From positions 3,424,001 through 3,488,000 of the forward strand of contig CBDASK010000003.1 in NCBI GenBank assembly GCA_965199495.1: a stretch of 64,000 nt of DNA, read 5' to 3'. The DNA is from Abditibacterium sp. (lineage in GTDB: Bacteria > Armatimonadota > Abditibacteriia > Abditibacteriales > Abditibacteriaceae). The notes under the pieces are model-generated. The model searched no databases and was not told where the DNA came from. It saw only the letters and a list, made by a program, of their open reading frames with translations. A program made the translations under genes and the position numbers. This document shows, in pieces, positions 1,834 to 62,094 of the stretch; the first letter of the stretch is position 1; each line of letters starts with the position of its first letter.

Positions 1834-2715
1834 TTAGCGTTCGCTATACCCGAAACGGCTGAGCCACGCATCGTTGTCGCGCCATTTATCGCGGACTTTG
1901 ACGCGCAATTCCAGAAACACTTTTTTGCCCAACGAACTCTCGATTTCGCGGCGCGCTTGCTGGCCGATTTCTTTGATGCGCGCGCCCTTTTCGCCGATAA
2001 CGATTTTCTTCTGGCCTTCGCGTTCGACGTAGACAATCGCCTCGATATACATGCGATTGTCGGGGCGTGGCTGCATCTGCTCGACAGCCACGGCGACCGA
2101 ATGCGGGATTTCTTCGCGCAACTGCGCCAACGCTTGTTCGCGAATTAATTCTTCAACGTGGAATTCGGGCGTGCGGTCGCCGATCATATCGGGCGGGAAA
2201 TACGGTTCGCCTTCGGGCAATCGCGCGATAATTGCGGCGCGCAACTCGTCCAAACCCGCGCCGGTCAACGCCGAAATTTCGTAAGTGCCATCGAAAACGC
2301 GCAGAGCCTCGAACTGGCGGCGGCGATAATCGCTCACCGCTAACGCGTCAATTTTGTTGAGCGCCAGCAAAACCGGGCCTTGGTAATGTTTCAGCAGTTC
2401 GGCGGCGCGGCGGTCGTCGGCGTGCGGCGCGTCGGTGGCATCGGCGACGAACAACACGCATTCGACATCGGCCAAAGCGCTGCGCGCGTTTTTGACGAGA
2501 GTTTCACCCAACTTATGCTGCGGCTCGTGAATGCCGGGCGTGTCCAAAAAGACGATTTGAAACTCGTCGCCGCCGTGCAAAACGCCGGTAATTCTGTGGC
2601 GCGTGGTTTGTGGCCGAGGCGAAACGATGACGTGCTTGCGGCCCAATAACGCGTTGAGAAGCGTTGACTTACCGGCGTTGGGTCGGCCCCACAAAGTGCA
2701 AAATCCTGATTTCAT
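1834..2715 (-). CDS. era: GTPase Era
   Basis: GRPNAGKS, QTTR, DTPG, NKID, EIPHS and KH-domain IVIGEKG motifs. Confidence 0.97.
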   Translation of the reverse strand: MKSGFCTLWGRPNAGKSTLLNALLGRKHVIVSPRPQTTRHRITGVLHGGDEFQIVFLDTPGIHEPQHKLGETLVKNARSALADVECVLFVADATDAPHADDRRAAELLKHYQGPVLLALNKIDALAVSDYRRRQFEALRVFDGTYEISALTGAGLDELRAAIIARLPEGEPYFPPDMIGDRTPEFHVEELIREQALAQLREEIPHSVAVAVEQMQPRPDNRMYIEAIVYVEREGQKKIVIGEKGARIKEIGQQARREIESSLGKKVFLELRVKVRDKWRDNDAWLSRFGYSER

Positions 2716-2761
2716 GTGTAAACAGTTTGGCTGATATGGGCGCGCGCTGAAACTTCGCCCC

Positions 2762-2812
2762 TTGACAACGCGCGCACTTTATTTTAATCTGTTTATTGAA
2801 TGAACATTCAAT
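2762..2812 (+). promoter_or_regulatory. sigma70 promoter and probable TetR operator
   Basis: TTGACA 2762-2767, 17 bp spacer, TAATCT 2785-2790; palindrome ATTGAATG-AA-CATTCAAT 2795-2812 overlaps the tetR start. Confidence 0.7.
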
Positions 2813-7830: not shown

Positions 7831-8298
7831 ATGAACGAGACATTGCACGCGCGGGCCGCCAGCGCGCCGGGAAAATTAATTTTCATTGCGGGCGTGGCTG
7901 TGCTTTACGGCTGTTTGTGGGGCGCGTTTGCCATTTTTTCCCGCGCCATTACGGTGTTATTATGGAGTTTCGCAACGGCAGACCCGGCTTATCACATCGA
8001 CGGTTTTGCTTCGCTCTATCTGGCTCTGGTTTATGGGCCGATTGAAATCGTGCCCTACATTTTCCCTCTGGCACTGGCTTTCGCCGTCGTTTTGGCCGTG
8101 GGCGAAAGCAAAGAACGCGATTTAGTTCGCCTCAGCTTTGGGCTGGGAGTTCTAAGCGGCGTGATTCAACTGGCGATTCTCGCTCTGGTTTATCCGATAG
8201 CTGGAATTACGCCTGAACTTGCGCTCTTCGCTTCGCCCGCATTTTTAGGTTCGGTTGGCGCTGGATGCTTCATCGGACGCATGCTTGAACACGATTAA
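7831..8298 (+). CDS. hypothetical membrane protein
   Basis: About four hydrophobic segments; start taken at MNETLH; 3' end overlaps the convergent gene. Confidence 0.55.
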   Translation: MNETLHARAASAPGKLIFIAGVAVLYGCLWGAFAIFSRAITVLLWSFATADPAYHIDGFASLYLALVYGPIEIVPYIFPLALAFAVVLAVGESKERDLVRLSFGLGVLSGVIQLAILALVYPIAGITPELALFASPAFLGSVGAGCFIGRMLEHD

Positions 8299-10182
8299 TT
8301 TCTGTTTGACAATCGCGCCCGCGCTTGTAAATCCCAGCATCATCAACGAGACGAAGACGCCGAGGCGAAACGTTTCGGGATTGTAGCCGCCGTCTTTCCA
8401 GCCGGGCGAAAACGCCGCGCCACTGATGCGCGTTTGTCCGACAATCGGACGTTCCCACACGTCGCAACCATCGGCGGAAAATACGATTTTTCCCTGCGGC
8501 GTATTGGTGCCCAAATCCAAACTTTGCGGCACAACAATAAAGCGCGTCGCCAGCGAATCCAAGACCGGCGAGCGCAAATTATTGATCAAAACCATGTTGC
8601 CGTTGAGCGCGGGTTCGGCGCCCTCGACCTGTTGGCCGCCTAAATTGGTGAACTCTTCGCCGTTGATATAAGCGCGATATTGGCGCAACGAAAGCGAATC
8701 GTAGCCGTTGACTTCGTTGAGACGATAAACCGTCGCGCCGTTGGGCGGCAGCGCGCCGATTGGATGGGTTTGCGGCGGGCGAAACGCTTCGTTGGGCAGC
8801 CACTGCGTGCGCGGCGTATAAAACAAAACGCGATTGTTTTGGTCAACGCGCGCTTGCAGCCACGTCGTCAAAGTCGTGGTCGGATAAATCTGCGCGCGCG
8901 GCGCTGTCGGTTGCGCGATGAACGCATTGAATCCCAATTCGGCGGCGACGAGAAGCAAAGCCACGGCGGGCACGAGGGAACTTTTTAGCTTCGCGCGCAA
9001 GAAATCTACGCCAAATCCGCACAATAGCGCCGCGCCCAAATTCCACAAAACTAAAGCGCGGCCCGTGCCGCCCATTTGCGAAACGCCGGGCACGCCATAA
9101 AAAAACAATTGCGCGAGGGGCGTCGCGAGCGCGTAGAGCAAACCGAAAATCGTCAAAGCCAACGCGAACCATTTGCCACTCGAACTTTGATTTGGGCGCG
9201 CGCGCCAGGCCAAACCGGCCAGCGCCAAGAGCGCGACGCCGACGCCGACGTAACCGAAATTTTCGTTAAGTGACGCCCAACTCATCGGCCAACCGGGAAT
9301 AAACAGCGACGGCAGTTCGCCAATTTGTAAAGCGCGTTTGTGAACTTCCTGCCACGCCTCCGGCGTGGCTGCTCCGACCGCGCGATGACCGTAGCGCGCC
9401 AATTCGAGCGTCGGCAAAATTTGTAGCATCGAAAGCAGTGCCGCGCCGAATAATGCGCTGAACCAGATTAAGTAACCGCGCCCGCGCTTTTTCAAAAACG
9501 GCACGCGTAGCAACAACGCCAGAACAATGTAAAAGAAAATCTGCGCGTGTCCCGCCAACAGCGCGCACGAAAGCGCCAAAACCAAACCTAACGCCGACAG
9601 ATGCGCGCGCTTGTCGTCGCAGGCTTTCTCGAATAACAACAGACAGAGCGGCAACCAACTCGCCGTCGCAAATAGCGTCGGCAACAGCGCCCACGCGGCC
9701 AAATAGCCGCAAAACGCAAACGCAATCGCCGCGACAACGCTCGCCGCGCGGCTCAGGCGCCAGCGTTGGCACAGAAAATACGTCGAAAACGCCGCCAAAA
9801 GCGTGTGCGCCAATGCAGCCACGCCGAAGGCGTAGGCGGTATCGAAGAGCCAAAACGGCAAATTGAGCGGGTAGAAAACCGCGCTTTGCGCGTTGGCCAC
9901 GAACGGCGTGCCGGAGAACTCGAACGGATTCCAGAGCGGAATGTGTCCGCGCTGCAATTCTTGCGCGGCGAAGTGACGCCACGGATAATACTGCGCCAGC
10001 GAATCCCATTGCAAAATTGTCCACGGCGCCTGCGGATTGCCGCCAAAGGGCGCGAAGCCGGACAGCATCGCGCCGGGTAGCAAAACCTGGCCGGTGAACA
10101 AAACGCGGCTCCACAGCGCGAGGGCAAAAAGCGTGAGAAGTCCCAGCGACGGCGCGTGTTTCTGCGGTAAAATAGATTTCAT
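8245..10182 (-). CDS. YfhO-like GT-C membrane glycosyltransferase
   Basis: D..QYYPW, PLWNP..SGTPF, FYP, GHAQ, GYDS motifs; many transmembrane helices; start taken at MKSILP. Confidence 0.8.
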   Translation of the reverse strand: MKSILPQKHAPSLGLLTLFALALWSRVLFTGQVLLPGAMLSGFAPFGGNPQAPWTILQWDSLAQYYPWRHFAAQELQRGHIPLWNPFEFSGTPFVANAQSAVFYPLNLPFWLFDTAYAFGVAALAHTLLAAFSTYFLCQRWRLSRAASVVAAIAFAFCGYLAAWALLPTLFATASWLPLCLLLFEKACDDKRAHLSALGLVLALSCALLAGHAQIFFYIVLALLLRVPFLKKRGRGYLIWFSALFGAALLSMLQILPTLELARYGHRAVGAATPEAWQEVHKRALQIGELPSLFIPGWPMSWASLNENFGYVGVGVALLALAGLAWRARPNQSSSGKWFALALTIFGLLYALATPLAQLFFYGVPGVSQMGGTGRALVLWNLGAALLCGFGVDFLRAKLKSSLVPAVALLLVAAELGFNAFIAQPTAPRAQIYPTTTLTTWLQARVDQNNRVLFYTPRTQWLPNEAFRPPQTHPIGALPPNGATVYRLNEVNGYDSLSLRQYRAYINGEEFTNLGGQQVEGAEPALNGNMVLINNLRSPVLDSLATRFIVVPQSLDLGTNTPQGKIVFSADGCDVWERPIVGQTRISGAAFSPGWKDGGYNPETFRLGVFVSLMMLGFTSAGAIVKQKLIVFKHASDEASSANRT

Positions 10183-10233
10183 GCGGGAATGTGACGCCCT
10201 TGGGAGTTGCGTTTGTCCAACCCTTTTTAATTC

Positions 10234-10704
10234 ATGCGACAATTGATTAAGTTTTGCATCGTCGGCGCCTCCAGCACGGTGATTGATAAAGGCATTTTCT
10301 GGTTATTGCTCAACGCGTTTCCGCTCGTGCCGTGGTGGGTGATGCAAAGTATTTCGTTTTGCTTCGGCGTTTCCAACGGTTTTTTCTGGAACCAACGCTG
10401 GACGTTTCGCGCGCATAAACAAGGCGCGACGCGCTCGCAATATTCCAAGTTTTTCCTCACCAATGTCATCGGATTGGGTATCAATCTGCTGATTACCAAA
10501 GGTTTTTTGTTTTTGTTCACCGGCAAGTTCATTCACGTCGTCAATCCCGATAAGAAAACAGTTCTGATTGCGTCTTTGTGCGCCGTCCCGATTGTGGTGG
10601 TTTGGAATTTCGGCGCCTCGCGTTTGTGGACGTTCAAGGCGCCCAGCGAGCCAAAGTCGAACGTCGAAAGTGAAATTGGCGCGCCGCCGATTGCGGCGCC
10701 GTAA
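10234..10704 (+). CDS. GtrA family protein (lipid-linked sugar translocase)
   Basis: QLIKFCIVG, NQRWTF and WNF..SRLWTF motifs. Confidence 0.9.
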   Translation: MRQLIKFCIVGASSTVIDKGIFWLLLNAFPLVPWWVMQSISFCFGVSNGFFWNQRWTFRAHKQGATRSQYSKFFLTNVIGLGINLLITKGFLFLFTGKFIHVVNPDKKTVLIASLCAVPIVVVWNFGASRLWTFKAPSEPKSNVESEIGAPPIAAP

Positions 10705-14601: not shown

Positions 14602-15600
14602 CTACTTCGCGGGCGCCGTGGCTGCTGGTCGCGGCGGCAGTTTTATCTCGAATGGAATCGGCCATCTGTCGCCTAAATATACGTTGCCTTTGACAGTGAT
14701 GCGGCCTTTGGTTTTATCTTGCGCGTCTATGGACAAATTGAAAACTTTGCCGATCTGACCGGGCTTCAACGAGATTTTTGGCTCTTCCGGAAAGCCTGTT
14801 CCGTAAGTTGTATAGCCAGAAACTCCAGTCGTTTCGTCATTCATGTCGGTGATTGTGCAATTTAATTCGGGCTTTTTTGTCTTGGATGCCAGCGGCAGAA
14901 TCGGTTCGACAATGATTTTAATCGCGGTTAGATCAGAGGTTTTCGATAAGTTGCTGACTGCGCCCATCGGGTTGTTTTTCCATGGCGTTGCTTCAATCGA
15001 GACCAACTTAACGCCCGGATTTTTATCTACTGGCGGAAACTTCTCGCCCGCCGCGCGCACCACTTTTTGTGCCCTGACTAAATCGCCATTCTTAAACTGG
15101 TAAAGCCCCCGGAAAGTGACTTTGCCCAACTTCGGCGACACCCCGCGCAGATTGAAAGGATGCTTGATTTTATAGTTTTGTCCATCAAATTGAACAATTC
15201 TTGGATAGCCCGTGGAAATAGCATCCACGAACACCGTTTTGTCCGGTCGAAGAGCTGTTATAATTCCGCCCGCCGCCCATTTGATGTTGGTTTTGGGCGT
15301 ATAATAAACAGTTGGCGGCCTTTTCTCATTCATCGGATCGAGCGAAAGTGGCGTTTCGTCTATTTCGCCCCACCAACGCGGCTTAGGCCACGAATGCGAG
15401 AGCGTTACCGTAACATAATGGCTCACATCCATCGCTTCATCGCGCCCCGTTGCGGGCGTGCGCTCGATTTTCGACACATACATCCCGCGTTTTTCCGGTG
15501 GATTGACTTGTTCCCAACGCCGGTAAAATAAGGCCGCCACGCCGATGAGTAAAAATGGCGCGAACAGCCACAGTTCGCGCGCTTTGAATCGTTGTCGCAT
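14602..15600 (-). CDS. lineage-specific membrane-anchored paralog, copy 2
   Basis: First 60 nt identical to copy 1; WPKPRW, FRGLY and RWPIPFEIKLP motifs. Confidence 0.85.
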   Translation of the reverse strand: MRQRFKARELWLFAPFLLIGVAALFYRRWEQVNPPEKRGMYVSKIERTPATGRDEAMDVSHYVTVTLSHSWPKPRWWGEIDETPLSLDPMNEKRPPTVYYTPKTNIKWAAGGIITALRPDKTVFVDAISTGYPRIVQFDGQNYKIKHPFNLRGVSPKLGKVTFRGLYQFKNGDLVRAQKVVRAAGEKFPPVDKNPGVKLVSIEATPWKNNPMGAVSNLSKTSDLTAIKIIVEPILPLASKTKKPELNCTITDMNDETTGVSGYTTYGTGFPEEPKISLKPGQIGKVFNLSIDAQDKTKGRITVKGNVYLGDRWPIPFEIKLPPRPAATAPAK

Positions 15601-17773: not shown

Positions 17774-18868
17774 TTAAATCCCGCAACTCTCTCGCACCGC
17801 TTCCGCCTTTACGTTCTCGACTTTGACCATCGCGCCCAAACGCGACGGCAAAATGAAATTCACGCTGGCGCCGCGATTCTTTTTGTCCAAGGCCATCGCC
17901 GCCCATAACTCGTCCCAATTTAAATGATTGGGCACGCGCGTTGGCAAATCGCAACGCTCGAACAAACGCGTCTGTCGTGCCAACAAATCGGCGCCCGCCG
18001 TTTGGCTAATCGTGCCCAACTGCATCGCCAAACGCGCTTCGACCGTCATGCCAATGGCAATCGCTTCGCCGTGCAAATGGGCGCCGTATGCGCTGACAGC
18101 TTCGATGGCGTGCCCGACGGTGTGGCCGTAATTCAAAATCGCGCGCCGCCCGACGCTATCGCTTTCGCGCTCGTCTTGCCCGACGACATCGGCTTTAATC
18201 TGACACGAACGCGCGATAACGTGAGTCAACGCGTCAGGTTTTAGCGCCAAAACGTCGTCCAAGTTTTCTTCGAGCCAGCCGAAAAATTCGGCGTCGTCAA
18301 TCACACCATATTTGATGACTTCGGCCAAACCCGCGCGAACTTCTCGCGGCGGCAAAGTTTGCAGACAATTCGGGTCAACGATAACAGCCCGTGGCTGCCA
18401 GAAGGCGCCCAACAAGTTTTTGGCGCGCGGATGATTGACGCCGGTTTTGCCGCCGACACTTGAATCCACCATCGCCAGCAAAGTCGTCGGCACCTGCACC
18501 CACGAAACGCCGCGCATCCAACTGGCGGCGACAAAACCCGCCAAATCGCCGGTCACGCCGCCGCCCAGCGCCCACACGCAGCCACGCCGACTGAAGCGCG
18601 CATTTGCCAAAGCGTCGAAAGCAGTTTCCATCGTGGAAATAGATTTGAATTGCTCGCCGTCGCCCATGTTGAAACGCATCACTTTTTGGCCGCGATTTTC
18701 GAGTTGTGCTGTCAATTGGTCGGCGTAAAGCGGCGCGACGGATGCGTTGGATAAAAGCGCGATTTCGCCGGGAAGGGCGGCGTCGGGCAATTCGGGCAAT
18801 TGGGCGAGGGCGCCGCTTTCGATGATGATTGGATAAGCGCGCTCGGCGAGGGGAACGGTGACGATCAT
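17774..18868 (-). CDS. aroB: 3-dehydroquinate synthase
   Basis: GEQFKS, GGGVTGDLAGF, PTTLLAMVDSSVGGKTG, LNYGHTVGHAIE; start taken at MIVTVP. Confidence 0.96.
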   Translation of the reverse strand: MIVTVPLAERAYPIIIESGALAQLPELPDAALPGEIALLSNASVAPLYADQLTAQLENRGQKVMRFNMGDGEQFKSISTMETAFDALANARFSRRGCVWALGGGVTGDLAGFVAASWMRGVSWVQVPTTLLAMVDSSVGGKTGVNHPRAKNLLGAFWQPRAVIVDPNCLQTLPPREVRAGLAEVIKYGVIDDAEFFGWLEENLDDVLALKPDALTHVIARSCQIKADVVGQDERESDSVGRRAILNYGHTVGHAIEAVSAYGAHLHGEAIAIGMTVEARLAMQLGTISQTAGADLLARQTRLFERCDLPTRVPNHLNWDELWAAMALDKKNRGASVNFILPSRLGAMVKVENVKAEAVRESCGI

Positions 18869-18942
18869 GGGCGCGCCATAGTTTGCCGCACGCGGGCGAT
18901 TCGGGTTTAAAGTTGCATAAGCTCCCTTGTTATTGGCTCTTC

Positions 18943-19088
18943 TGTCATTTCGAGTGAGGCACGAACCGAGAAATCTTGCGGCCCCGCGCCAGCGGAAACC
19001 ATGCTTTCTCCTCAACGTTGAAGTGTGATTGACCTGCGCTGCCGCGCGGGCGTAAGATTTCTCGGTTCGTGCCTCACTCGAAATGACA
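18943..19088. repeat. MITE/REP-like element with 35-bp perfect terminal inverted repeats
   Basis: tgtcatttcgagtgaggcacgaaccgagaaatctt at 18943-18977 and its reverse complement at 19054-19088. Confidence 0.9.
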
Positions 19089-19257
19089 ATGATAGGAGAC
19101 ATATGTTGAATTGCTAAACGCTCACAACTCGGCACTTGACGCGCTTTTAAACGTCTAAACCTTGCAGAAAACAACCGGGCGTGTTAAGATTGTTTGAGCG
19201 CCTTTCGCCCGAAGAAAATTTCGGAGAAATCGAGCGCCCACACCATCATGTTGAATT

Positions 19258-19330: not shown

Positions 19331-19379
19331 CTCATTTCACGTCTATCGCCTTGCGGTGCAACCGGCAACGATAGCCACG

Positions 19380-19415
19380 ACGCGAGACTTCTGCTTCCAG
19401 AAGTCTCGCGTTTTT
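19380..19415 (+). terminator. intrinsic terminator after tRNA-Lys
   Basis: acgcgagacttctg...cagaagtctcgcgt followed by a T tract. Confidence 0.75.
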
Positions 19416-19448
19416 GTTTTTCCGTCTCTTTTTCACAATCCTAAATAT

Positions 19449-20843
19449 ATGTCTAATCATCCCAAATCCGAAGTCGTCGTTCGCAACGTGAACGGCCTAA
19501 TTTCGACGCAAGCCCCGCGCGAACGCGCGCTGTTGGGCGAACTTATTCTCAGCGAGCGCCCGGTCAAGCCGGAACTCGCCAATCATATCGAGGAGGAAAC
19601 CCCAGCCGATAGCCTCGAAGAACTCGCCGGTTTAGCCGATGCTGCGGGCGCAACTGTCGTCGGCGAAGTCTCGCAAAAGCGCGCCCAACCCGACGGCGCC
19701 ACGCTGTTTGGTTCGGGCAAAGTCGAGGAAATCAAACAACTCATTGACGAGCAAAACATCGAAGTTTTCATCGTTGACCGCGACTTATCGCCCGCGCAGG
19801 GCCGCAACTTGGAAAAGAAACTCGAATGTCGCGTCATTGATCGCACCGAATTAATCCTCGATATTTTCGCGCGCCGCGCGCAAACCAAACAGGCCAAATT
19901 GCAAGTCGAATTGGCGCAGTTGCGCTATCAACTGCCGCGATTGAAACGGATGTGGAGCCATTTGGAGCGTCAGGGCGGCAACATTGGAATGCGCGGGCCG
20001 GGCGAAACCCAGCTCGAAACCGATAAATCGTTGGCGCGCGACCGTATTTCGATGCTCGAAAAACAGTTGGGCACGATTCGTCGCCAGAAAGACATCGAAC
20101 AGGCCGGACGCTCCGAATTCGATTTGGGCGCTCTGGTTGGCTACACCAACGTCGGCAAAAGCGCGCTTCTGAACGCGTTGTCGCGCCCGACCGGCGACGG
20201 CGTGTTGGAAGCCGATATGTTGTTCGCGACATTGGGAGCCACGACGCGCAAAGTCGAATTGGGCGGAGGTCGCACCGTTTTGATGTCCGACACTGTTGGA
20301 CTCGTGCGCCGTTTGCCGCACAATTTGGTCGAGAGTTTTCATTCGACTTTGGCCGAAGTCAAAAACGCCGATTTTCTGTTGTGGGCCGTCAACGCCGCCG
20401 ACCCGGAAATGGAAGACAAATTGCGCGCCGTGCGCGAAGTTCTGGACGAACTCGAAGTTTTAGACACGCCGCATTTGTTGGTTTTAAACCAGTGCGATTT
20501 ATTGGACGCCGAACGCCGCGCCGAACTGGCCCATCGCTATCCGGACGCGGTTTTTACTTCGGCTTTAACCGGCGAAGGTTTGAATGATTTAAAAGAAGCG
20601 ATTTTCCAATTGCTCGATGAACAGGCGCAAGACATCGCGCTGGAATTGCCCGCCGCCAGCGAAAAAACTGGCAAAATTTTGGCGCAAATCGCGCTGCACG
20701 GACGCATTTTAGGTCAAGATTGGAGCAATGAAGGCGACGGCACCAATCCGCTTTTATGCGTGCAAGCGCGTCTGGCCAAACGTTGGTGGGAACTGGCGGG
20801 CGTCGAGCCATATTTGCAAAATGTGGGAGTGGGCGCACGCTGA
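19449..20843 (+). CDS. hflX: GTPase HflX
   Basis: IDRTELILDIFARRA, LQVELAQLRY, GPGETQLE, GYTNVGKS, LFATL, DTVG. Confidence 0.96.
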   Translation: MSNHPKSEVVVRNVNGLISTQAPRERALLGELILSERPVKPELANHIEEETPADSLEELAGLADAAGATVVGEVSQKRAQPDGATLFGSGKVEEIKQLIDEQNIEVFIVDRDLSPAQGRNLEKKLECRVIDRTELILDIFARRAQTKQAKLQVELAQLRYQLPRLKRMWSHLERQGGNIGMRGPGETQLETDKSLARDRISMLEKQLGTIRRQKDIEQAGRSEFDLGALVGYTNVGKSALLNALSRPTGDGVLEADMLFATLGATTRKVELGGGRTVLMSDTVGLVRRLPHNLVESFHSTLAEVKNADFLLWAVNAADPEMEDKLRAVREVLDELEVLDTPHLLVLNQCDLLDAERRAELAHRYPDAVFTSALTGEGLNDLKEAIFQLLDEQAQDIALELPAASEKTGKILAQIALHGRILGQDWSNEGDGTNPLLCVQARLAKRWWELAGVEPYLQNVGVGAR

Positions 20844-20858
20844 ATTTAAATCAACCAA

Positions 20859-20888: not shown

Positions 20889-20893
20889 CCAAT

Positions 20894-37020: not shown

Positions 37021-37027
37021 TTGTAAA

Positions 37028-41227: not shown

Positions 41228-41228
41228 A

Positions 41229-45537: not shown

Positions 45538-46320
45538 TTAAAATATCTCGCCAAAAAACGATTTCATGCGCGCCCACGAGCGCGCGTCGGCTTGCGCGTT
45601 GTAGGCGGCGCCGGTCGAATTGTCGTTGCCCGCGTCTTTCTCGGTGAACGAGTGAACTGTATCGCCATACAAATCGACTTCGTAATTGACTTTGGCGGCC
45701 TTCATTTCGGCCATCAACGCCAAAACATCTTTCATCGGCGAAAACGGATCGTCGGCGCCGTGCAACACCAAAACTTTGCCCTTGATGTTTTTGGCATCGG
45801 CGGGCGTTGGCGTGTCGAGGGAACCGTGAAATGTGACGAAACCCTTTAAATCGGCGCCGCTCCGTGCCAGTTCGAGCGCCGTGCCGCCGCCGAAACAATA
45901 ACCAATTATCGCCAATTTATGCACGTCAACATTGGGCTGTTTGCGCAGTTCGATGACCGCCGCCCGCGCGCGATTGCGCAAAAGCGGGCGATTCGCTTTG
46001 TATTGGCCCGCCAATTTACCAGCTTCCGTTGTGTTCTTCGGACGCACGCCTTTGCCATAAATATCGAGGGCAAACGCGACATAACCCATTTTGGCGAGCA
46101 TGCGGGCGCGTTCTTTTTCGTAGTCGGTCAGGCCGAGCCATTGGTGCGCGACCAAAACGCCGGGACGCTTACCCTGAAAGGAATCGTCGTAAGCCAGATA
46201 ACCTTCGAGCGTTTTGCCGCCCTGTTTGTAATCCACATTTTTCGTGATCATTTTGGCGTGAGCCGTCGCCGTGGCTGCCGTGAAGACAACAGCGAGAGCG
46301 AGTAGGGGTTTCAATTTCAT
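45538..46320 (-). CDS. dienelactone hydrolase family protein, secreted
   Basis: GYCFGG, FHG, HGADDP, HSFT; signal peptide. Confidence 0.93.
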   Translation of the reverse strand: MKLKPLLALAVVFTAATATAHAKMITKNVDYKQGGKTLEGYLAYDDSFQGKRPGVLVAHQWLGLTDYEKERARMLAKMGYVAFALDIYGKGVRPKNTTEAGKLAGQYKANRPLLRNRARAAVIELRKQPNVDVHKLAIIGYCFGGGTALELARSGADLKGFVTFHGSLDTPTPADAKNIKGKVLVLHGADDPFSPMKDVLALMAEMKAAKVNYEVDLYGDTVHSFTEKDAGNDNSTGAAYNAQADARSWARMKSFFGEIF

Positions 46321-46426
46321 CGCGCGGATGTGGGGCAATTTAAACGCCGTTGTATTCGCTATTTCTGGCGCACCAAAATCAAGTGCGCGTGCGCGAGAGG
46401 GGCGATTTATCTCAAACTAAGCTGCG

Positions 46427-47733: not shown

Positions 47734-47736
47734 GAG

Positions 47737-48573
47737 TTGAAAACAATGAACTCCATTCACTTTGCCCTCGCCCTAATGGCAGCCACGGCGCCACTGGTTA
47801 CGCCCGCCGTGGCTGCACCTTCGACCGATACCATCGCCGCCAAAGGCGCGCCGATTGTTGTGACCGCGCTCGTTCACGCCTCGACGCTGCTGCAATACGG
47901 CCCGCTCACGATTTACGTTGATCCGGTCGCTGGCCCAACTTACACACGCAAAGCCGACGCGATTCTCATTACGCATTCGCATCCCGACCATCTCGATTTG
48001 GCGACGATTCGTAAAGTTCTCAAACCCGGCGGCGTTTTGATCGGTTCGCGCGGAACCGCCGATCAATTGGGACAAGTCACGGGCGCCGACCGGCGGATTC
48101 TGGGTTATTATCAGGGCACAAATTTTAGCTACGCAGGGCGTCTGGCCGGTTTCAATCCGGGCCAAGTCAAAGTGCGCGCCGTGCCCGCTTACAACATCGT
48201 GCGCGGACCGAAGCAGGGCCAGAAGTATCATCCGAAATATATTTTCGATGGCTACGTTTTAACGATGGGCGGCAAGCACATTTACTTCGCGGGCGATACC
48301 GAAAACACGCCCGAAATGCGCGATTTAAAGGATATTGACGCCGCGTTTTTGCCGATGAATTTGCCTTACACCATGACGCCCGACGAAGCAGCCACGGCGG
48401 CTAAGGCGTTTCGGCCAAAAGTGGTTTATCCCTATCATTTTCGCTATCCGTTCGATAAGCCAAGCGGCAACGCCGAGAAATTCGCCGCCGATATGAAAGG
48501 TTCGGGGGTTCAAGTCAAGATTTTGGATTGGTATCCGCGCGCCGCCGTCGCGAAGATGATGAATAAAAAATGA
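47737..48573 (+). CDS. secreted MBL-fold metallo-hydrolase
   Basis: ITHSHPDH, AGDT, PYH motifs; signal peptide. Confidence 0.9.
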   Translation: MKTMNSIHFALALMAATAPLVTPAVAAPSTDTIAAKGAPIVVTALVHASTLLQYGPLTIYVDPVAGPTYTRKADAILITHSHPDHLDLATIRKVLKPGGVLIGSRGTADQLGQVTGADRRILGYYQGTNFSYAGRLAGFNPGQVKVRAVPAYNIVRGPKQGQKYHPKYIFDGYVLTMGGKHIYFAGDTENTPEMRDLKDIDAAFLPMNLPYTMTPDEAATAAKAFRPKVVYPYHFRYPFDKPSGNAEKFAADMKGSGVQVKILDWYPRAAVAKMMNKK

Positions 48574-50378: not shown

Positions 50379-52547
50379 TTATAATTCTTCGATGCGCGCC
50401 AACGCCGTCGTCGCGAGTGCATCGAACCAGCGGCCATTGGGCGAAACCATTGGCAACCACCATGCGGTCGGGCGCACGTTGTTCTGGCGCAAACTTTCCG
50501 ATGCGCGCATCGCGTTGCGCACCAACAATAAGCGCGCCAATTCCGCCTGCGATTCCAACGCCTCAATGCGCGCGCGCAAGAGAACGGCGGCTTCGCTTTT
50601 CTCCAGTTCGAGTTGTGCTTGAAGTTTCTTATCCGCCTGCGCCCGTGCCGACCGCGCGCCGTTTTGCGCGGCCTTGATGCGCCCGTCAAATTCGCGCCAC
50701 TGTGTTTCCCGCTCGGCGATTTGCGCGCGTAATTCGCTTTCGCGCGTCGCTTCGCGCGCTTCCAGTTCGGCGACGTGGCTGCGTTCGAGCTTGGATAATT
50801 TGCGCGGTTTGCCGTTTTCGCCGAGCGGATTGAGGCGTTGCGCGGCGGCCTCTTTGATGTCGCGGATTTGTTCTTTCCGTGGCCAAATCTGCGCGCGAAA
50901 GAAATCGCCTTTTTCGCGCTCCAAAGTCTGCGCTTTCTGAGTCGCCAGATGCGCTTGCTTCTGCAATTCGTCGCGTTGATTTTTTAATGGTTCGACTTGC
51001 TCGCGTAACGCGCGTAAATCTTCGCGCACGGCTTCGTATTCCGCTTTTTTTGCAAGCCATTTTTCGCCATCCAAATCGGCGAGAGCGTCCATCAAATCTT
51101 CGGTTTTGTGACACGCTTTCAAGCGCGCGCGCACCGCGTCGCATTGCGCGCATTTGTCGCGCCATGTCGCGGCGAACTCGGAAGCCGAAACTTTTCCATC
51201 GTCCCACAAATGCGCTAAGTGCGGCGGCAATTGAAAATGAGCCTCCACGCCCGCAAGCGCGTCCCACGTCTCGTATTTGAGGCGCAACATCGGATGTAAA
51301 TTTAGCTCGATGCCGTGCGAACGCAGTGCGTCATTCATCTTCTGGGTGCGCGAAGTGTAGCCCGACGCTTTTTCGTGGAACACGAAAATAAACTCGGCGC
51401 TGAGCATCGAAATCAAACTCACGGCTTTGCCAACGAGGGCGATGTCCGGCCCAAAATGTCCTTCCAGCAACGCGGCCAAGCGGCCAATCGAATGCGGATC
51501 GCAGTTTTGGCAAATTTCGATGGGCGTTTCGGTTTCGACGATGACGTTGCCTTCGTGCAAGCGCAAGGTGCCGCGCCCGTGACCGGGCACGACAACATCA
51601 AAGGGCAGGGCGCCCGGCCCAAACTGATCCAAAGCGTAAATGCCCGATCCGCGCAGAGCTTCGTTATAACATCGTTTGGCCAGTTCGCGCGTCGCCGGAT
51701 TGAGAAAAATATCAACGAAATTAAATCTTGGCAAATTGGCGGTTTGCGCGTTGAAACGAAACAAATCGAGCGAAGTCGTGGTTTCGAGTTCGCAGGTCGC
51801 GCCGCCGCGCACCAAACGCCAAATCTTCGGAATTAAATCTTGGTATAAATCCGACAAACTCGCGTCGGCGTGTAACATCGCGAACTCTTCGACCCAGCCC
51901 AAAATCGCGCGCGCCACGTCGCGCGCCGCGCACGGTTCGTCGTCCTCAAAATCGGGCGGACAACCGTTAATTGTCAAACTTTGCCGAAATCCCCAGCGCA
52001 ATTGCTCACGCAAAGCGGGCAAAATATCGCTCAATTTTACATCGGCGGAAATCAACGGATGCGGCTCGGTATGGACAATCGCGCGCCATAAGGGCGCGTC
52101 GGTTTCCTGATTGAGTAACGCTTCGGCGTCGCCAAAATAGGCTTTGGCGGCTTTGGCGAACGCGATGTTTTCGCGCGTAAAATCGCCGCGCGAAGGCACG
52201 ATTTCGGCGCCGAACAATGCCGACAATTCGCCCGCCGCGCTCCACAAACCGCGCGTATCGCCGTCGTTGTGACGCAACACGGCGAACGGTTCGCTTTGGA
52301 TCGCCAAACCTTCGAGTTTGGCGAAATAGTCGGTGTCATGAACACCAGCCACGACGCGCGCGCCCGGTGGCACTTGCCCGCCAAATTCGAGCGATTCGCA
52401 CAAACGGCAAAACGCGGCTTTGACCGGTTCGTCCCACAAAACGGTCTGCCCAAGCGTAAGAAATGGTGTATCGGGATAGCGAGTGCGAAGCTCGCGCAAA
52501 GCCGCGACTGTCGCGGCGGGAATAGTGGAAGACTGCGGGGAGGCCAT
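50379..52547 (-). CDS. large hypothetical protein with C-terminal coiled coil (possibly BshC-like fold)
   Basis: ~720 aa ORF with host-like codon usage; start taken at MASPQ. Confidence 0.8.
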   Translation of the reverse strand: MASPQSSTIPAATVAALRELRTRYPDTPFLTLGQTVLWDEPVKAAFCRLCESLEFGGQVPPGARVVAGVHDTDYFAKLEGLAIQSEPFAVLRHNDGDTRGLWSAAGELSALFGAEIVPSRGDFTRENIAFAKAAKAYFGDAEALLNQETDAPLWRAIVHTEPHPLISADVKLSDILPALREQLRWGFRQSLTINGCPPDFEDDEPCAARDVARAILGWVEEFAMLHADASLSDLYQDLIPKIWRLVRGGATCELETTTSLDLFRFNAQTANLPRFNFVDIFLNPATRELAKRCYNEALRGSGIYALDQFGPGALPFDVVVPGHGRGTLRLHEGNVIVETETPIEICQNCDPHSIGRLAALLEGHFGPDIALVGKAVSLISMLSAEFIFVFHEKASGYTSRTQKMNDALRSHGIELNLHPMLRLKYETWDALAGVEAHFQLPPHLAHLWDDGKVSASEFAATWRDKCAQCDAVRARLKACHKTEDLMDALADLDGEKWLAKKAEYEAVREDLRALREQVEPLKNQRDELQKQAHLATQKAQTLEREKGDFFRAQIWPRKEQIRDIKEAAAQRLNPLGENGKPRKLSKLERSHVAELEAREATRESELRAQIAERETQWREFDGRIKAAQNGARSARAQADKKLQAQLELEKSEAAVLLRARIEALESQAELARLLLVRNAMRASESLRQNNVRPTAWWLPMVSPNGRWFDALATTALARIEEL

Positions 52548-52596
52548 AAAAACAAAAAAGGGACGCTTGAAGCAGGGCAAGAGGCGCGCCGATTTT

Positions 52597-56054: not shown

Positions 56055-56357
56055 CTAATTTAAAGTCTTTTTCGGCTCGCGATATTTTAGATAAGCCCAA
56101 ACGCCCAGAACGCCAGCTGGCAAATTCGCCACGCCGACGGCGATCATTGGCCATTCGCCCAGCGCCAAACCGTAGTTGAGCCAGGTGATTTCGTTGACCA
56201 GAGAAAGCCAGATCAAACTCGCCGAAATATCGCCCACACTTTTGGTGCGCCACATTTTCCAGACCTGATCATAAAAACCGTAAGTAACGACGGCGCTGCT
56301 CGCCAACGCGAGGAGGCGGGCGGCCTCGACATATTGAGGCGCGAAAGTGAAGAACAT
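56055..56357 (-). CDS. SemiSWEET/PQ-loop family small membrane protein
   Basis: QVWKMWRTKSVGDIS, WLNYG, N motifs; about three TM helices. Confidence 0.8.
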   Translation of the reverse strand: MFFTFAPQYVEAARLLALASSAVVTYGFYDQVWKMWRTKSVGDISASLIWLSLVNEITWLNYGLALGEWPMIAVGVANLPAGVLGVWAYLKYREPKKTLN

Positions 56358-56411
56358 AATTTAAGGTGCGCCGGGCATCAGCTACGGCGCGCGGTGCGCT
56401 CTGTAAACCGC

Positions 56412-57326
56412 GTGACGAAATTATCGGCCCAACCGCGCGTTCTGGATTTAGACGGCAGTTTAACCGCGCAACCCGCGCTCTCAGAACGAGCGACGATAGC
56501 AGCCACGTCGCAAGAATTGGGGCCATATCTGCGCTATCTTTGCACGCGCGCCGCGTTAAATCGTTTCGCCGCGTCTCTCGATCCGTCGCAAAGCCACCAA
56601 CTGACGTTTTATGGTTCGGGCGATTTTCATCATCTGACGGCGGTTTTGCTGGCTCAGTTTCGCGCGCAGCTCAGCGTTGTGGTTTTCGATCAGCATCCCG
56701 ATTGGGACATCACGGCGCCGGTGGCTTGTTGCGGCAGTTGGGTCAACACCGCTTTAAAATTGCCGCACATCAAGAAAATCGTCGTCATCGGCGCGGGCGA
56801 CGAAGATTTGGGCGGACAGCATCTATTGCGCGGCAACACGACGGCATTGCGCAACGGACGCCTCGAAATTTATCCGGCGACTTTCGCGCGTTCCCAAACG
56901 CTGTCGCGGCGCACGCGCCGTTTGCGTTGCGCCCGGCAAAGCGGTGGTTTTATCCATTGGAAAACCGTCGAACAATTGGGCTGGAACGATTTGATGAGCC
57001 ACGTCATCGCCGGTTTGCCGACGCGCCAGATTTACGTTTCGCTCGATAAAGATTGTCTGGTCGAACAAAACGCGATTTCTAATTGGGACGCGGGCGAATT
57101 GAAATTGGAAGACGTATGCGCCGCGATTGAAAGATTGAATCGCGAATGTGAAATCGTCGGCGCCGATGTGACCGGCGAATGGAGCGCGGGACAACCGGCT
57201 TCGCCCATATTTCGCGCGGTTTCGCGCGCCGATCATCCGCAGTTGCCAATACCTACGGCGGCGGAATTAACGCGCAATCAAGACACTAATTTACGCTTAC
57301 TCGACACGTTTTTGTCGTTGTGCTGA
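56412..57326 (+). CDS. arginase/ureohydrolase-fold protein
   Basis: GSGDFHH, FDQHPD, CGSW, YVSLDKD, TNW-like SNWDAG, GADVTG. Confidence 0.85.
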   Translation: MTKLSAQPRVLDLDGSLTAQPALSERATIAATSQELGPYLRYLCTRAALNRFAASLDPSQSHQLTFYGSGDFHHLTAVLLAQFRAQLSVVVFDQHPDWDITAPVACCGSWVNTALKLPHIKKIVVIGAGDEDLGGQHLLRGNTTALRNGRLEIYPATFARSQTLSRRTRRLRCARQSGGFIHWKTVEQLGWNDLMSHVIAGLPTRQIYVSLDKDCLVEQNAISNWDAGELKLEDVCAAIERLNRECEIVGADVTGEWSAGQPASPIFRAVSRADHPQLPIPTAAELTRNQDTNLRLLDTFLSLC

Positions 57327-59011: not shown

Positions 59012-59496
59012 GAATCGTCGCCCCGGTGAGCGTCGCGCCCGGTGGAACTTACGTTTTAGATTCGTCGGGAATGTTGGCCTACCTGAAGAACGAGGCGGGC
59101 GGCGCTTTGGTCGCCAGCATTCTGAGCGATGTCACTTCGACGGTTTACGCTCACAGCGTCAACCTGGTCGAGGTGCGTTACGATTTTGGCGCACCATCCG
59201 TAGAAGCGAATCGTAGCGCGGCAAAGCGGGCCTTGGCTCAACTTTTCGCGGCGGGCGTGCAAGAAAGACGCGATAACGATTCCGAATTTTTTGAAGATGT
59301 GGCGCTTTTAATCGCCGAGCGGCGCGCGCAATTGCCCGATCCAAATAATCCAAGACAGAAACCGCGCTTGGCTCTGGGCGATGCGTTTGGTCTGGCGTTA
59401 TCGAGACGGTTAGGCGTTGGGTTCGTCACCGCCGACCAAAGCGAAATCGTGCCGATGCAAACCGCCGGATTTTGCCGCGCGCTGTTTATTCGGTGA
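59008..59496 (+). CDS. PIN-domain (VapC-like) toxin
   Basis: VLDSS..LAYL..EAG, VNLVEV, LGDAF.LAL, VTAD. Confidence 0.88.
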   Translation: MRIVAPVSVAPGGTYVLDSSGMLAYLKNEAGGALVASILSDVTSTVYAHSVNLVEVRYDFGAPSVEANRSAAKRALAQLFAAGVQERRDNDSEFFEDVALLIAERRAQLPDPNNPRQKPRLALGDAFGLALSRRLGVGFVTADQSEIVPMQTAGFCRALFIR

Positions 59497-59514
59497 CTAA
59501 TCGAGTAACTCACT

Positions 59515-62094
59515 CTAACTCACGCGCACCAAATTCAATTTGTCGCCCCAGAATCGCTGTAATCCGCGCTCCAACGCCTGATGCTCCGGCCATTCGAGCG
59601 TCGGATCGGCTTGCACGACATCTTGCGCCGCCTCGCGCGCGAGGGCAATTACGTCAATATCTTCAATTAAATTCGCCAAGCGAAAATCGGGCATTCCGCT
59701 TTGGCGCGTGCCGTAAAACTCGCCCGGCCCGCGCAGTTGCAAATCGTGTTCGGCGATCTCGAAACCGTTTTGCGTTTTGACCATCACGTTTAAACGGGCT
59801 TTGCCGTCGTCGCCTTTGGGGTCGGCGAGCAAAATACATTTGCTGGCGCCCGGCCCGCGCCCGACGCGCCCGCGCAACTGGTGCAATTGCGAAAGTCCAA
59901 AGCGGTCGGCGTCTTCGATGAGCATTACCGTCGCGTTGGGCACGTCAACGCCGACTTCGATGACGGTTGTCGAAACCAACACGTCGTGCATTCCCTGCCG
60001 GAACAGTTCCATCTGTTCGTCGCGCTCGTAAATGTCCATTTGGCCGTGAACCAGACCGACGCGAAGCCCGTTCAACTCGTTTTCGCGCAACGATTCGGCG
60101 ACCGCCGTGGCTGCCTTGAGGTTGGCGAGTTTTTCCGATTCTTCGACGAGCGGGCAAACCACATACGCCTGATGGCCTTTGCCAACTTCGGCGCGCACAT
60201 AATTGTAAGCGCGCTCGCGGGCCGATGGCTTGATTTTCATCGTCTTAATCGGCTGGCGACCGGGCGGCAGTTCGTCCAAAACCGAGACGTCCAAATCGCC
60301 GTAAACCGTCAAAGCTAAAGTGCGCGGAATCGGCGTTGCTGTCATTACCACGACATCGGGGCGCACGCCGCCCGCGCCTTTTTCGGCGAGCGCCGCGCGC
60401 TGCATCACGCCGAAACGATGTTGCTCGTCCACCACGCAAACGCCCAACTTATGAAACTCGACGCCTTCCTGAATCAAGGCGTGCGTGCCGACGACGACGT
60501 GCGTGCGGCCCTCGGCCAAATCCGCCAAAATCGCGCGCTTGTTTTTGGCTTTTAAGCTGCCTTCCAACAAACCGACTTCGACGCCCAATGGCTTGAGCAA
60601 CCGATCTAAAACATAGAAATGTTGCTCGCTCAAAATCTCGGTCGGCGCCAAAAGCGCGCCCTGATAACCGGCCTTGAACGCCGACCACAACGCATAAGCC
60701 GCGACAATGGTTTTGCCGCTTCCCACGTCGCCGTGCAAAAGCCGGTTTGTGGGGCGCGGCGAGCGCAAGTCGAGGCGAATTTCGTTCATCACACGCTTTT
60801 GCGCGCCGGTGAGTTTAAACGGTAGCGCCGCGATGAACTTTTTGATTTCGTCGTTTTCGACGATGACGCGATTGCCCGCTTCCTCGAAATGCGCGCTGCG
60901 TTTTTTCTGGGCCAGCGCGACTTGCAACAGAAATAATTCCTCGAAAACCAGACGATAACGCGCGCGTTCTTTGGTGTCTTCGTCATCGGGAAAATGAATC
61001 GCGCGGAGAGCCGGTTCCATTTCCATCAAATCGAATTTTTCGCGAATATCGGGCGGAATCATCTCTTCCAAAGTTGGCCCGTATCTATCCAGAGCGTCGG
61101 CGATTGCGCGGCGCATATTCGACTGGAACAAGCCGTCGGAAAGCGGATAGACCGGCACGATGCGTCCGATTTGCGAGCCGTCGCCTTCGCTGACAATTTC
61201 AAATTCGGGACTGTCCACCTGCAAGACGCCGTTAAATTCCGAGATTTTGCCGAACGCGAAAACCTGCGTGCCAACCGGAAACTGTTTGGCGCGCCATGCC
61301 TGATTCCACCATTGCAAATCCACGAAGCCGGTTCCGTCGCCCACGCGCACGCGCGTGATTTTGCGATGGCCCATGTCGCGCGTTTGCGCTTCGTATTGCA
61401 CCGTCGCCAGAAACGAATCTTTGTCGCCCGGCAATAACTCGGCGATAGATTTCACGATGCGCCGGTCTTCGTAGCGCGCCGGAAAATGATGCAGCAGATC
61501 GTCAATGGTGCGAATGCCTAATTTCGCCAACGTCTTGGCGCGCCCGGTGCCGATACCTTTTAAATAAAGCACGCCTTCGTCAATCGAAATCGGTTCGGGT
61601 TCGGGCTTTTCGGCACGTTCTGTTTTCGCGATGGGCGCCACTTCTTCGATTTCATCGGCTGTTCGCGGCAACGATTCGATTGGCGCCGCCGATGCAGCCA
61701 CGGCGGGCGCCTGCGCTTCGCGGCGTTGCTGCGCTTGCGCGCGCGAAACCGTAATTGCCGGACGCGGCGGCGTGGCTGCATTGCGTTCGGCGATGGGCGC
61801 GCTATCCAATGTATCTTCGAGTTTGTCCACCAATTCGCCGGTCACGCGCACGATATGGCGGCGCGTGTCTTCGTCTTCATAAGGATAACGCTTCCAAATA
61901 TCGTGCAATCGTTGCAGCGTAAATTCGCATGTCACTGGCACGGCGTCGTCGCCTGAGGCAATCGCGTCCAGAGCGCGTTGGGTTATCGTCATATAAAAGC
62001 GGCTGGTGCCGCCGTCCATCGCCGAATTGTTCCACTCTTTGGCGGTTTCGAGCGGGAGCGGCGCGCGTAATTTGTCGAGGTTTTCGCGAAGCAT
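59515..62094 (-). CDS. recG: ATP-dependent DNA helicase RecG
   Basis: GDVGSGKT, DEQHRFG, TATPIPRT, QLHQLRGRVGR, DLQLRGPGE. Confidence 0.97.
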   Translation of the reverse strand: MLRENLDKLRAPLPLETAKEWNNSAMDGGTSRFYMTITQRALDAIASGDDAVPVTCEFTLQRLHDIWKRYPYEDEDTRRHIVRVTGELVDKLEDTLDSAPIAERNAATPPRPAITVSRAQAQQRREAQAPAVAASAAPIESLPRTADEIEEVAPIAKTERAEKPEPEPISIDEGVLYLKGIGTGRAKTLAKLGIRTIDDLLHHFPARYEDRRIVKSIAELLPGDKDSFLATVQYEAQTRDMGHRKITRVRVGDGTGFVDLQWWNQAWRAKQFPVGTQVFAFGKISEFNGVLQVDSPEFEIVSEGDGSQIGRIVPVYPLSDGLFQSNMRRAIADALDRYGPTLEEMIPPDIREKFDLMEMEPALRAIHFPDDEDTKERARYRLVFEELFLLQVALAQKKRSAHFEEAGNRVIVENDEIKKFIAALPFKLTGAQKRVMNEIRLDLRSPRPTNRLLHGDVGSGKTIVAAYALWSAFKAGYQGALLAPTEILSEQHFYVLDRLLKPLGVEVGLLEGSLKAKNKRAILADLAEGRTHVVVGTHALIQEGVEFHKLGVCVVDEQHRFGVMQRAALAEKGAGGVRPDVVVMTATPIPRTLALTVYGDLDVSVLDELPPGRQPIKTMKIKPSARERAYNYVRAEVGKGHQAYVVCPLVEESEKLANLKAATAVAESLRENELNGLRVGLVHGQMDIYERDEQMELFRQGMHDVLVSTTVIEVGVDVPNATVMLIEDADRFGLSQLHQLRGRVGRGPGASKCILLADPKGDDGKARLNVMVKTQNGFEIAEHDLQLRGPGEFYGTRQSGMPDFRLANLIEDIDVIALAREAAQDVVQADPTLEWPEHQALERGLQRFWGDKLNLVRVS

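Follow-up and report, generated by a model that had tools for sequence, protein, structure and literature searches.

The genome of an Abditibacterium species (NCBI GenBank assembly GCA_965199495.1; 4.81 Mb in three contigs, here called G000) is rich in copies of a short DNA word, W-GCAGCCACG-N-CG, and the hyper-abundance of this word is real and strong. It was noticed in a 64,000-nucleotide stretch of the chromosomal contig CBDASK010000003.1 (positions 3,424,001 to 3,488,000, or G000:C3:3424001-3488000), which is referred to below as the window. The word may be a lineage-specific genomic self word of the DNA uptake sequence (DUS) kind that arose recently in one Abditibacteriales lineage, an interpretation that is favoured here tentatively and placed slightly below an even chance. 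Held with more reserve is the fuller proposal that this would be the first DUS system outside the Proteobacteria, of recent origin in one Abditibacteriales genus, with two flank dialects and with sister species, about 72% identical in nucleotides, that are free of the motif.

In the window GCAGCCACG occurs 32 times, 16 times on each strand, compared with a mean of 0.88 and a maximum of 4 in 100 dinucleotide-preserving shuffles, and 24 of the 32 copies continue with NCG (0.04 in the shuffles). The initial annotation of this DNA, in which the copies had been found by eye, was exact for all 32 coordinates and strands and for the 24 extended copies. The GC content of about 58% that it assumed was not recovered, as GC ranges from 52 to 59% by 4-kb segment in the window and is 55.7% for the chromosome. 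Confinement of the motif to the window, which had been considered as well, does not apply: the 4.72-Mb chromosome carries 917 forward and 863 reverse copies, 1780 altogether or 0.377 per kb, and the small contigs of 24.7 kb and 64.6 kb carry 1 and 2. Markov models of order 1 to 4 predict 63-129 copies on both strands, and relative to the order-3 expectation of 77 the excess is 23-fold; the maximal-order expectation (1679) was discarded as uninformative, because the sub-words are part of the same motif.

Alignment of all 1780 copies revealed flank information at positions -1 (A 49%, T 29%), +10 (C 85%) and +11 (G 79%), and the word is therefore written as W-GCAGCCACG-N-CG; the GCCACG positions tolerate the fewest one-off variants. 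The most frequent 10-, 11-, and 12-mers of the whole chromosome are AGCCACGGCG, CAGCCACGGCG, and GCAGCCACGGCG, respectively. The 12-mer form with 11 specified bases has 1350 copies, compared with 12 for the same pattern read backwards as a reversed control. Over-representation is 23x for the exact word, 1.7x for one-off variants and 0.87x for two-off variants, a gradation that is expected if near-matches become converted to matches. GCAGCCACG is not palindromic, its reverse complement being CGTGGCTGC. Alternating CG runs are also extremely common in G000 given its 55.7% GC, and the top 8-mer is GCGCGCGC, with 3776 copies.

The constraint acts on the DNA, and not on protein or codon usage. Genes of the genome were called with a home-made model based on open reading frames (ORFs) and codon likelihood, which covers 85% of the chromosome and misses genes under 80 amino acids, so that all intergenic counts are upper bounds. 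Within these gene calls lie 1625 of the 1780 copies (91%; about 9% lie outside, compared with 15% of the genome), 792 in sense and 833 in antisense orientation. The six reading frames named in the initial annotation are all present in the window and are all used genome-wide, Ala-Ala-Thr (AAT; 563 copies) and xVAA (671 copies) accounting for 76% of the coding copies and the other four frames for 391. The enrichment outlasted shuffling that preserves amino acids and codon usage, as 20 rounds of synonymous-codon shuffling within genes left on average 43.9 sense and 55.7 antisense copies (maxima of 59 and 69), about 100 in total compared with 1625 observed. The forced use of rare alanine codons was likewise borne out: GCA and GCT represent 6.3% and 10.5% of alanine codons, yet GCA GCC ACG writes 563 of the 1424 AAT tripeptides, where the product of the codon frequencies predicts approximately 1%. 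The proteome itself is affected, with 1424 AAT, 1801 VAA, and 179 SSH tripeptides observed for 948, 1175, and 84 expected from composition (1.5x, 1.5x, and 2.1x, respectively), and with 774 TAA and 835 AAV as reversed controls. At window position 42891, G000 encodes D-A-A where relatives encode D-G-G, D-G-P or D-E-A, and since the orthologues have other residues there, the word was created at the expense of amino-acid changes. Word density varies mildly across codon-typicality quintiles in G000 (0.31-0.47 per kb).

Orientation along the chromosome is balanced. Most 200-kb bins have similar numbers of forward and reverse copies (the most uneven being 43:24 and 23:42; bin totals 47-98), and with the replichores set at the GC-skew extremes 882 copies are leading and 898 lagging, i.e., 49.6% on the inferred leading strand. 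The leading-strand skew contemplated in the initial annotation is thus lacking; the cumulative GC skew ranges only from -6109 to +210, a weak signal that leaves origin and terminus uncertain and makes the 200-kb bins the better evidence for absent polarity. The variance-to-mean ratio of copy numbers in intervals of 5 to 50 kb is 0.83-1.0, which is near-Poisson, and nowhere in 4.7 Mb are neighbouring AGCCACG cores more than 9.4 kb apart. Neighbours within 100 bp number 74 for about 66 expected, and 69 of them are inverted (e.g., C3:403739, 2607772, and 4538796) and 5 direct, which suggests avoidance of direct and preference for inverted neighbours. At least two non-coding inverted pairs lie between convergent genes. 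One of them, at window positions 20853-20894, has a perfect 13-bp stem with AT-rich tails, an RNA fold of -31.8 kcal/mol (z -6.4) and a terminator-like scan match, and by these predictions it looks like a bidirectional terminator.

The word was sought in 41 genomes, comprising G000 and 40 relatives that extend to the same phylum, and its core in all 27 genomes available for the family. Its 12-mer form is abundant in three of them, all of the same genus (1350 copies in G000, 1047 in G011, and 431 in G004), and the others have at most 36 copies, which is control-like. The 8-mer core CAGCCACG reaches about ten times its control in these three genomes (3091/300 in G000, 2676/320 in G011, and 3503/318 in G004) and occurs at 0.5-1.6 times control in the remaining 24 of the 27 family genomes. 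Conservation in relatives, a matter raised in the initial annotation, hence extends to 3 of 27 family genomes, with a dialect in G004. Nucleotide identity to G000 is about 85% for G011, 80% for G004, 72.5% for G006, and 70.5% for G012, and judged by nucleotide identity, and not by a tree, the three motif-bearing species are mutually closest. In 400 kb each of the related species G006 and G012 no abundant word of any kind was found. A search with an inverted pair of the 12-mer against one genome per species gave 104 loci, and among the best 80 of these 104 one named genome was hit several times (6 loci), an Abditibacteriales metagenome-assembled genome of which 5 of the 6 loci align to G000 at 80-84%.

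Dynamics of the word were followed by alignment to G000 of samples of 386-400 kb from each of four relatives. In G011 53 of 81 G000 9-mer sites are kept (65%; random 9-mers 34%), in G004 28 of 98 (29%; random 26%), in G006 0 of 56 (random 12%), and in G012 0 of 34 (random 8%), and G011 has 17 private sites and G004 has 27. At G000 sites the relatives differ by 1-8 substitutions, nearly always without indels, and the 4 inverted pairs within the samples aligned without motif-sized indels as well; the sites arise by substitution. Differences at unshared sites involve all 11 specified positions and include both transitions and transversions. The 20 bases beside sites are less conserved than average (0.818 compared with 0.856 in G011, and 0.745 compared with 0.800 in G004), and therefore the word itself is maintained in otherwise poorly constrained places; recent interspecies exchange near the sites was not detected, as flank identity is not raised.

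DNA of apparently accessory nature is poor in the word, in agreement with the density contrast between core and accessory DNA considered in the initial annotation. Contigs C1 and C2 together have 3 copies for 34 expected, and their core counts are at most one third of the chromosomal density. In 20-kb windows of the chromosome the mean is 19.2 cores, and the poorest clusters lie at 420-520 kb, 1.12-1.26 Mb, and 4.2-4.3 Mb of G000:C3. Two islands and one control region were compared with the relatives: at E <= 1e-30 hardly anything in G011 or G004 matches the two 20-kb windows from the poorest clusters, each with 6 cores, and most of a normal 20-kb stretch, taken from within the 64-kb window, is alignable, with identities of 86% (G011) and 79% (G004). 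As the two that were tested lack counterparts in these genomes, the motif-poor clusters are probably genomic islands. In G011 the core density is 0.68 per kb even in DNA without an alignment to G000, compared with 1.0 in alignable DNA, so the contrast is modest outside clear islands. One motif-poor stretch, G000:C3:2766484-2775007, is an array of 131 identical repeats on one strand at 62-68 bp spacing that resembles clustered regularly interspaced short palindromic repeats (CRISPR).

The G004 genome has its own dialect of the word. In 400 kb of G004 the AGCCACG core has a density of 0.87 per kb, compared with 1.0 in G000, and its flank consensus is GACACC-AGCCACG-TCC(T)A, where G000 has GC..NCG. 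The G004 form ACCAGCCACG has 178 copies, 66 of them in gene calls (0.20 per kb) and 112 in non-coding DNA (1.55 per kb); 97 of the 178 stand in hairpin-forming inverted pairs, and many of these hairpins are GTAG-headed. Where copies in gene calls can be aligned to G000, the differences are substitutions. The G000 form persists in G004 at 0.21 per kb of coding DNA, and at some orthologous places GCAGCCACGNCG in one species stands opposite CCAGCCACGTCC in the other. A concentration of copies in intergenic inverted pairs, a terminator-type feature, is encountered in G004 and not in G000. From G004:C3:113163-200300 onward (L173-L192), intergenic hairpin doublets CGACACCAGCCACGTCCTACGG ... CCGTAGGACGTGGCTGGTGTCG occur at about 1.5 copies per kb of non-coding DNA, and in the same loci some single copies occupy the loop of an A-run/T-run hairpin; an array of three tandem 27-bp units is located at G004:C3:129828-129908.

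Other palindromic repeats are present in these genomes. Intergenic repeats of about 100 bp with a CCGTAGAGAC head (GTAG-type, resembling repetitive extragenic palindromic [REP] sequences, their hairpin-forming doublets [REPINs] or miniature inverted-repeat transposable elements) lie at window positions 42083-42199 and 47635-47735, and a 21-mer of the former and a 25-mer of the latter have 87 and 60 exact chromosomal copies, respectively. Repeats of this type are found in many copies on both strands of G004 and G011, and they are without the AGCCACG core. A third palindromic intergenic family (GCGAATAAATTCGCGGCAAC...; window 43166-43290) has many G004 matches, and its 25-mer has only 2 exact copies in G000; a related hairpin at G000:C3:1692031-1692110 has the motif in both arms.

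The favoured interpretation, in which the word acts as an uptake sequence, can be phrased as a mechanism. Double-stranded DNA that bears the word would be bound preferentially by some component of the competence machinery at the surface or in the periplasm, for which a minor type IV pilin or a protein like ComEA is the most plausible candidate. Word-bearing fragments of conspecific DNA would then enter through ComEC and recombine through DprA and RecA more often than word-free fragments, and this bias would turn near-matches into matches wherever protein function tolerates it, a molecular drive. It is proposed that the word spreads evenly over both strands of the recombining core chromosome because of this conversion; the cheapest frames, Ala-Ala-Thr and Val-Ala-Ala, would take most copies, and newly acquired DNA would stay poor in them. 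The machinery is encoded in G000: ComEC, DprA, and ComEA (SLBB and HHH_3 domains; C3:3332882-3333967), eight secretin matches, 48 matches to the prepilin N-terminal domain (N_methyl) that are mostly of the expanded DUF1559 type, and an operon at C3:867620-872591 with PilC, the prepilin peptidase PilD, and four pilin-like genes. The comEC, dprA, and comEA genes that the initial annotation had proposed to look for are thus present, as are type IV pilus genes, and a comP homologue is not. Conservation of pilC-pilD extends to all 13 genus genomes, and the four downstream pilin genes have DNA-level matches in G011 (78-85%) and weakly in G004 (64-65%) and in no others, a pattern that on these comparisons fits fast evolution as well as replacement.

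Several observations weigh against this interpretation, and everything measured is a property of the distribution of the word and not of its reader. The ComEC, DprA, and ComEA families match in 10-11 of 14 control genomes, and competence genes being near-universal, their presence permits uptake and does not support it. The search of G000 for a homologue of ComP_DUS (PF16732), the minor-pilin receptor of Neisseriaceae, gave none, the best match (E 0.998, 12.6 bits) having a stop codon inside, and the phyletic pattern of the pilC-pilD-pilin operon yielded no receptor candidate tied to the three motif-bearing species, minor pilins evolving too fast for this DNA-level test. Any process that acted within the cell for a long time would likewise leave accessory DNA poor in the word and sites conserved. 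In G000 the word is not concentrated in intergenic terminators, in contrast to DUS and to the uptake signal sequences (USS) of Pasteurellaceae. The 44 inverted pairs within 40 bp are variably spaced, 37 within genes and 7 in non-coding DNA, and the intragenic excess of inverted pairs, which this interpretation does not account for, is not known to have a DUS/USS counterpart. About half of the G004 dialect copies, those in GTAG-headed doublets, may have spread as REPIN-like elements and not by drive, or may be terminators that carry the word. Finally, the favoured frames use the rare codons GCA and GCT, unlike the trend towards preferred codons given for DUS and USS in the available text of PMC2817400. 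The suggestion of an uptake-like or self-recognition system made in the initial annotation has partial support, insofar as none of the distribution tests refutes it, and it is weakened by the missing ComP homologue and by the lack of concentration in intergenic terminators.

The same distribution could be produced by a reader inside the cell, with the word being kept, as for the highly iterated palindrome HIP1, by selection or by biased repair for a cytoplasmic function in which uptake has no part. Conceivable readers include a defence system that marks self DNA, an orphan methyltransferase paired with its repair partner, and other DNA enzymes with sequence specificity. This explanation, the main rival, is doubtful on balance and nonetheless has to be taken seriously. 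Symmetry, upkeep of sites, graded one-off excess, and poverty of recent DNA all follow from a long-acting resident process, and the search for an uptake receptor was fruitless. Hyper-abundant words do exist outside competent families, HIP1 being linked to orphan methylases in the available text of PMC5861425 and PMC4390886, and C5 methylases are found in all three motif-bearing genomes. However, HIPs are palindromic and the word is not, and differences at all 11 positions, transitions and transversions alike, leave no single-position signature of the Vsr type. Vsr exceeded the cut-off in G004 only among the 13 genus genomes, and C5 methylases occur in 8 of these 13, motif-free ones included. 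A comparison limited to 6 C5 methylase loci showed that the G000 enzyme is at most 38% identical to that of G011 and at most 28% to that of G004; the compared enzymes are non-orthologous, and the nearest relatives of those of G011 and G004 are in the motif-free G012 and G008. Drive by Vsr and a C5 methylase was therefore not supported, which weakens this part of the methylation-linked alternative offered in the initial annotation. Tandem C5 methylase pairs, with 67% identity between those of one genome and the other, were observed in G011:C5:27164-29067 (L268) and in the motif-free G012 (G012:C1:613519-615389, L267), a layout that is typical of systems with asymmetric recognition sites.

A site for a nucleoid-organising or chromosome-handling protein, needed about every kilobase on either strand, would agree with the even, near-Poisson spacing, with a largest core gap of only 9.4 kb, and with the indifference of the distribution to strand. 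It is nevertheless improbable, as positions are not kept beyond the closest relative (29% in G004 compared with 26% for random words), 24 related genomes do without the word, and the G004 flanks changed within approximately 20% sequence divergence; moreover, the known sites of nucleoid proteins are much scarcer or are degenerate.

It is very improbable that the word is a recombination hotspot of the Chi type or a polar sequence like the FtsK-orienting polar sequences (KOPS) and architecture-imparting sequences (AIMS). The word is G/C-rich and frequent, and the G004 dialect, when reverse-complemented, includes GCTGGTGT, seven of the eight letters of E. coli Chi. However, polarity was rejected for lack of a sustained skew in 200-kb bins, most of which are balanced regardless of the origin, in line with the 882 leading and 898 lagging copies; moreover, 11 specified positions and a 23-112 fold excess are far beyond any known Chi site.

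A by-product of protein sequence or codon usage, in spite of the 76% of coding copies held by AAT and xVAA, and copies of a small insertion element, in spite of the resemblance of the G004 hairpin doublets to mobile REPINs, are scarcely credible, the former being rejected by the synonymous shuffles (about 100 versus 1625) and the use of six frames, and the latter, for G000, by sites and 4 inverted pairs that differ by substitution without motif-sized indels and by a 91% intragenic location. All five genomes examined for Y1 transposase genes have them, motif-free ones included, and no motif doublets were seen beside the Y1_Tnp genes inspected, which were those of six G000 regions and of a single G004 locus (1 of 8 G004 matches was inspected for flanking GACACCAGCCACGTCC doublets).

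In the window itself, 30 of the 32 copies lie within genes of our own ORF-based gene model, and the frames are AAT 12, xVAA 11, QPR 2, SH 2, WL 1, and RGC 1, with 2 copies intergenic. In the following, intervals of 12 positions include the NCG extension and those of nine are copies without it. Gene 1834..2715(-) has a sense copy in frame 2 at 2066..2074 (-), read MQPR. Three copies fall in gene 8245..10242(-), at 8856..8867 (+; antisense, TWLQ), 9361..9372 (-; sense, AAT), and 9815..9826 (+; antisense, GVAA), and one in gene 14602..15600(-), at 14614..14625 (-; sense, AAT). Gene 17774..19174(-) contains 18390..18398 (-; sense frame 2, WQPR) and 18578..18589 (+; antisense frame 0, RGC). The intergenic inverted pair at 20853..20894, described above, consists of copies 20861-20872 (-) and 20875-20886 (+) between the convergent genes 19356..20843(+) and 20894..22174(-); the latter gene also has an antisense copy at 21273..21284 (+), read GVAA, as has gene 24815..26632(-) at 25638..25649 (+), again antisense and GVAA. 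Gene 27726..28853(+) carries 27869..27877 (-; antisense, AVAA) and 28800..28808 (+; sense, AAT), and gene 29654..30106(+) carries 29974..29985 (-; antisense, DVAA).

For several of the copies that follow, the orthologous places in relatives can be given. In gene 32133..34013(-), the sense AAT copy at 33489..33500 (-) has orthologous places without the motif in G011 and G004, and the antisense DVAA copy at 33700..33711 (+) is kept in G011 and reads GCGGCCAAG in G004. The antisense GVAA copy at 35804..35815 (-) in gene 35580..36920(+) is kept in G011, as are both copies in gene 36974..37603(+), i.e., 37214..37222 (+; sense, AAT; GCGGCAACG in G004 and GCGGCGCGG in G006) and 37420..37428 (-; antisense, AVAA). 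Gene 39335..39928(+) has copies at 39391..39402 (-; antisense, AVAA) and 39558..39566 (+; sense frame 1, SSHV), and gene 41193..42065(+) has one at 41280..41291 (+; sense, AAT). The copy at 42891..42899 (+; sense, AAT) in gene 42210..43139(+) corresponds to GGAGGCACG in G004, GGGCCGACG in G006, GAAGCGACC in G003, and GAGGCCACC in G012. A sense AAT copy at 46267..46278 (-) lies in gene 45538..46338(-). Gene 47737..48573(+) contains an inverted pair at 47779..47816, formed by 47779-47790 (+; AAT) and 47805-47816 (-; AVAA), as well as a sense AAT copy at 48388..48399 (+) that is kept in G011. The remaining copies are 50771..50782 (-; sense frame 1, RSHV) in gene 50379..52580(-), 56499..56510 (+; sense, AAT) in gene 56334..57326(+), and, in gene 59515..62094(-), 60103..60114 (-; sense, AAT), 61694..61705 (+; antisense, AVAA), and 61768..61779 (-; sense, AAT).

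Sequence-specific DNA uptake has been documented in two proteobacterial families only, and the available text of a 2025 survey (bioRxiv 10.1101/2025.10.24.684340) treats only these. Since both known systems are old and fixed across families, the origin of uptake specificity is an open question. The distribution of the present word, by comparison, is young, as it is restricted to three species. Keyword searches of open-access papers and bioRxiv found no report of the word or of uptake sequences in the Abditibacteriales group; in one of them, the best 10 of 252 matches were unrelated primer contexts. The same genomic signature in a distant and barely studied phylum, with close relatives that are without the word, provides a tractable contrast that is suited to finding the reader protein and to dating and modelling the drive. 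If the fuller proposal, of a first DUS system outside the Proteobacteria, is true, these genomes form a natural before-and-after series; comparative genomics could then pick out the receptor, and the emergence of uptake specificity, which has never been witnessed for either DUS or USS, could be retraced. If the reader is not the uptake machinery, they still represent a strong and clean case of a genome-wide word that remodels the choice of codons and even the proteins themselves.

Among the known systems, Chi, KOPS, and AIMS share with the word that they are over-represented oligomers read by DNA-handling machines; they are skewed towards the leading strand, and the G000 word is without such skew. 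REP and REPIN elements are mobilised by REP-associated tyrosine transposases (RAYTs). The G004 form, most of whose copies stand in GTAG-headed inverted doublets between genes, resembles them, and G000 has other GTAG-headed palindromic repeats, whereas the word of G000 and G011 is 91% intragenic, substitution-born, and without doublets of fixed spacing. HIPs are old and widespread in their phylum and palindromic, in contrast to the G000 word, which is asymmetric and young, with flanks that change between sister species. In the available text of PMC5861425 and PMC4390886, HIP1 (GCGATCGC) of cyanobacteria is 15-300 fold over-represented and linked to orphan methylases, and it is likewise a hyper-abundant, short, intragenic word that is kept at the DNA level.

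The closest likenesses are with DUS and USS. In the available text of Findlay & Redfield (2009, PMC2817400), the tripeptides encoded by DUS and USS are about doubled, the copies stand at poorly conserved positions and are lacking in genes without homologues in relatives, and 35-65% of copies lie in ORFs (65% in H. influenzae). About half of them are in predicted terminators according to the accessible part of bioRxiv 10.1101/2025.10.24.684340, and a minor pilin has been predicted as the USS receptor in that of PMC12616744. With the USS of Pasteurellaceae, as far as these texts describe it, the G000 word shares a 9-mer core with a weaker flank, a location mostly in ORFs (65% in H. influenzae, 91% here), tripeptides raised towards doubling, location at positions of low conservation, and a lack of copies in genes that have no homologue in relatives; it differs in that its favoured frames use rare codons and that its uptake bias is a proposal. 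Compared with the DUS of Neisseriaceae, it belongs to another phylum, is another word and has no ComP_DUS homologue; it spans three species of one genus and not a whole family, is mostly coding and under-represented between genes in G000, and has a role in uptake that is a proposal. Both are short non-palindromic words with thousands of copies on both strands, located within genes and in inverted hairpin pairs, poor in foreign DNA, and accompanied by raised encoded tripeptides. Both also have flank dialects around a core that is shared by related species, a feature which for Neisseriaceae is described, in the available text of Frye et al. (2013, PMC3630211), as DUS dialects that are conserved within species.

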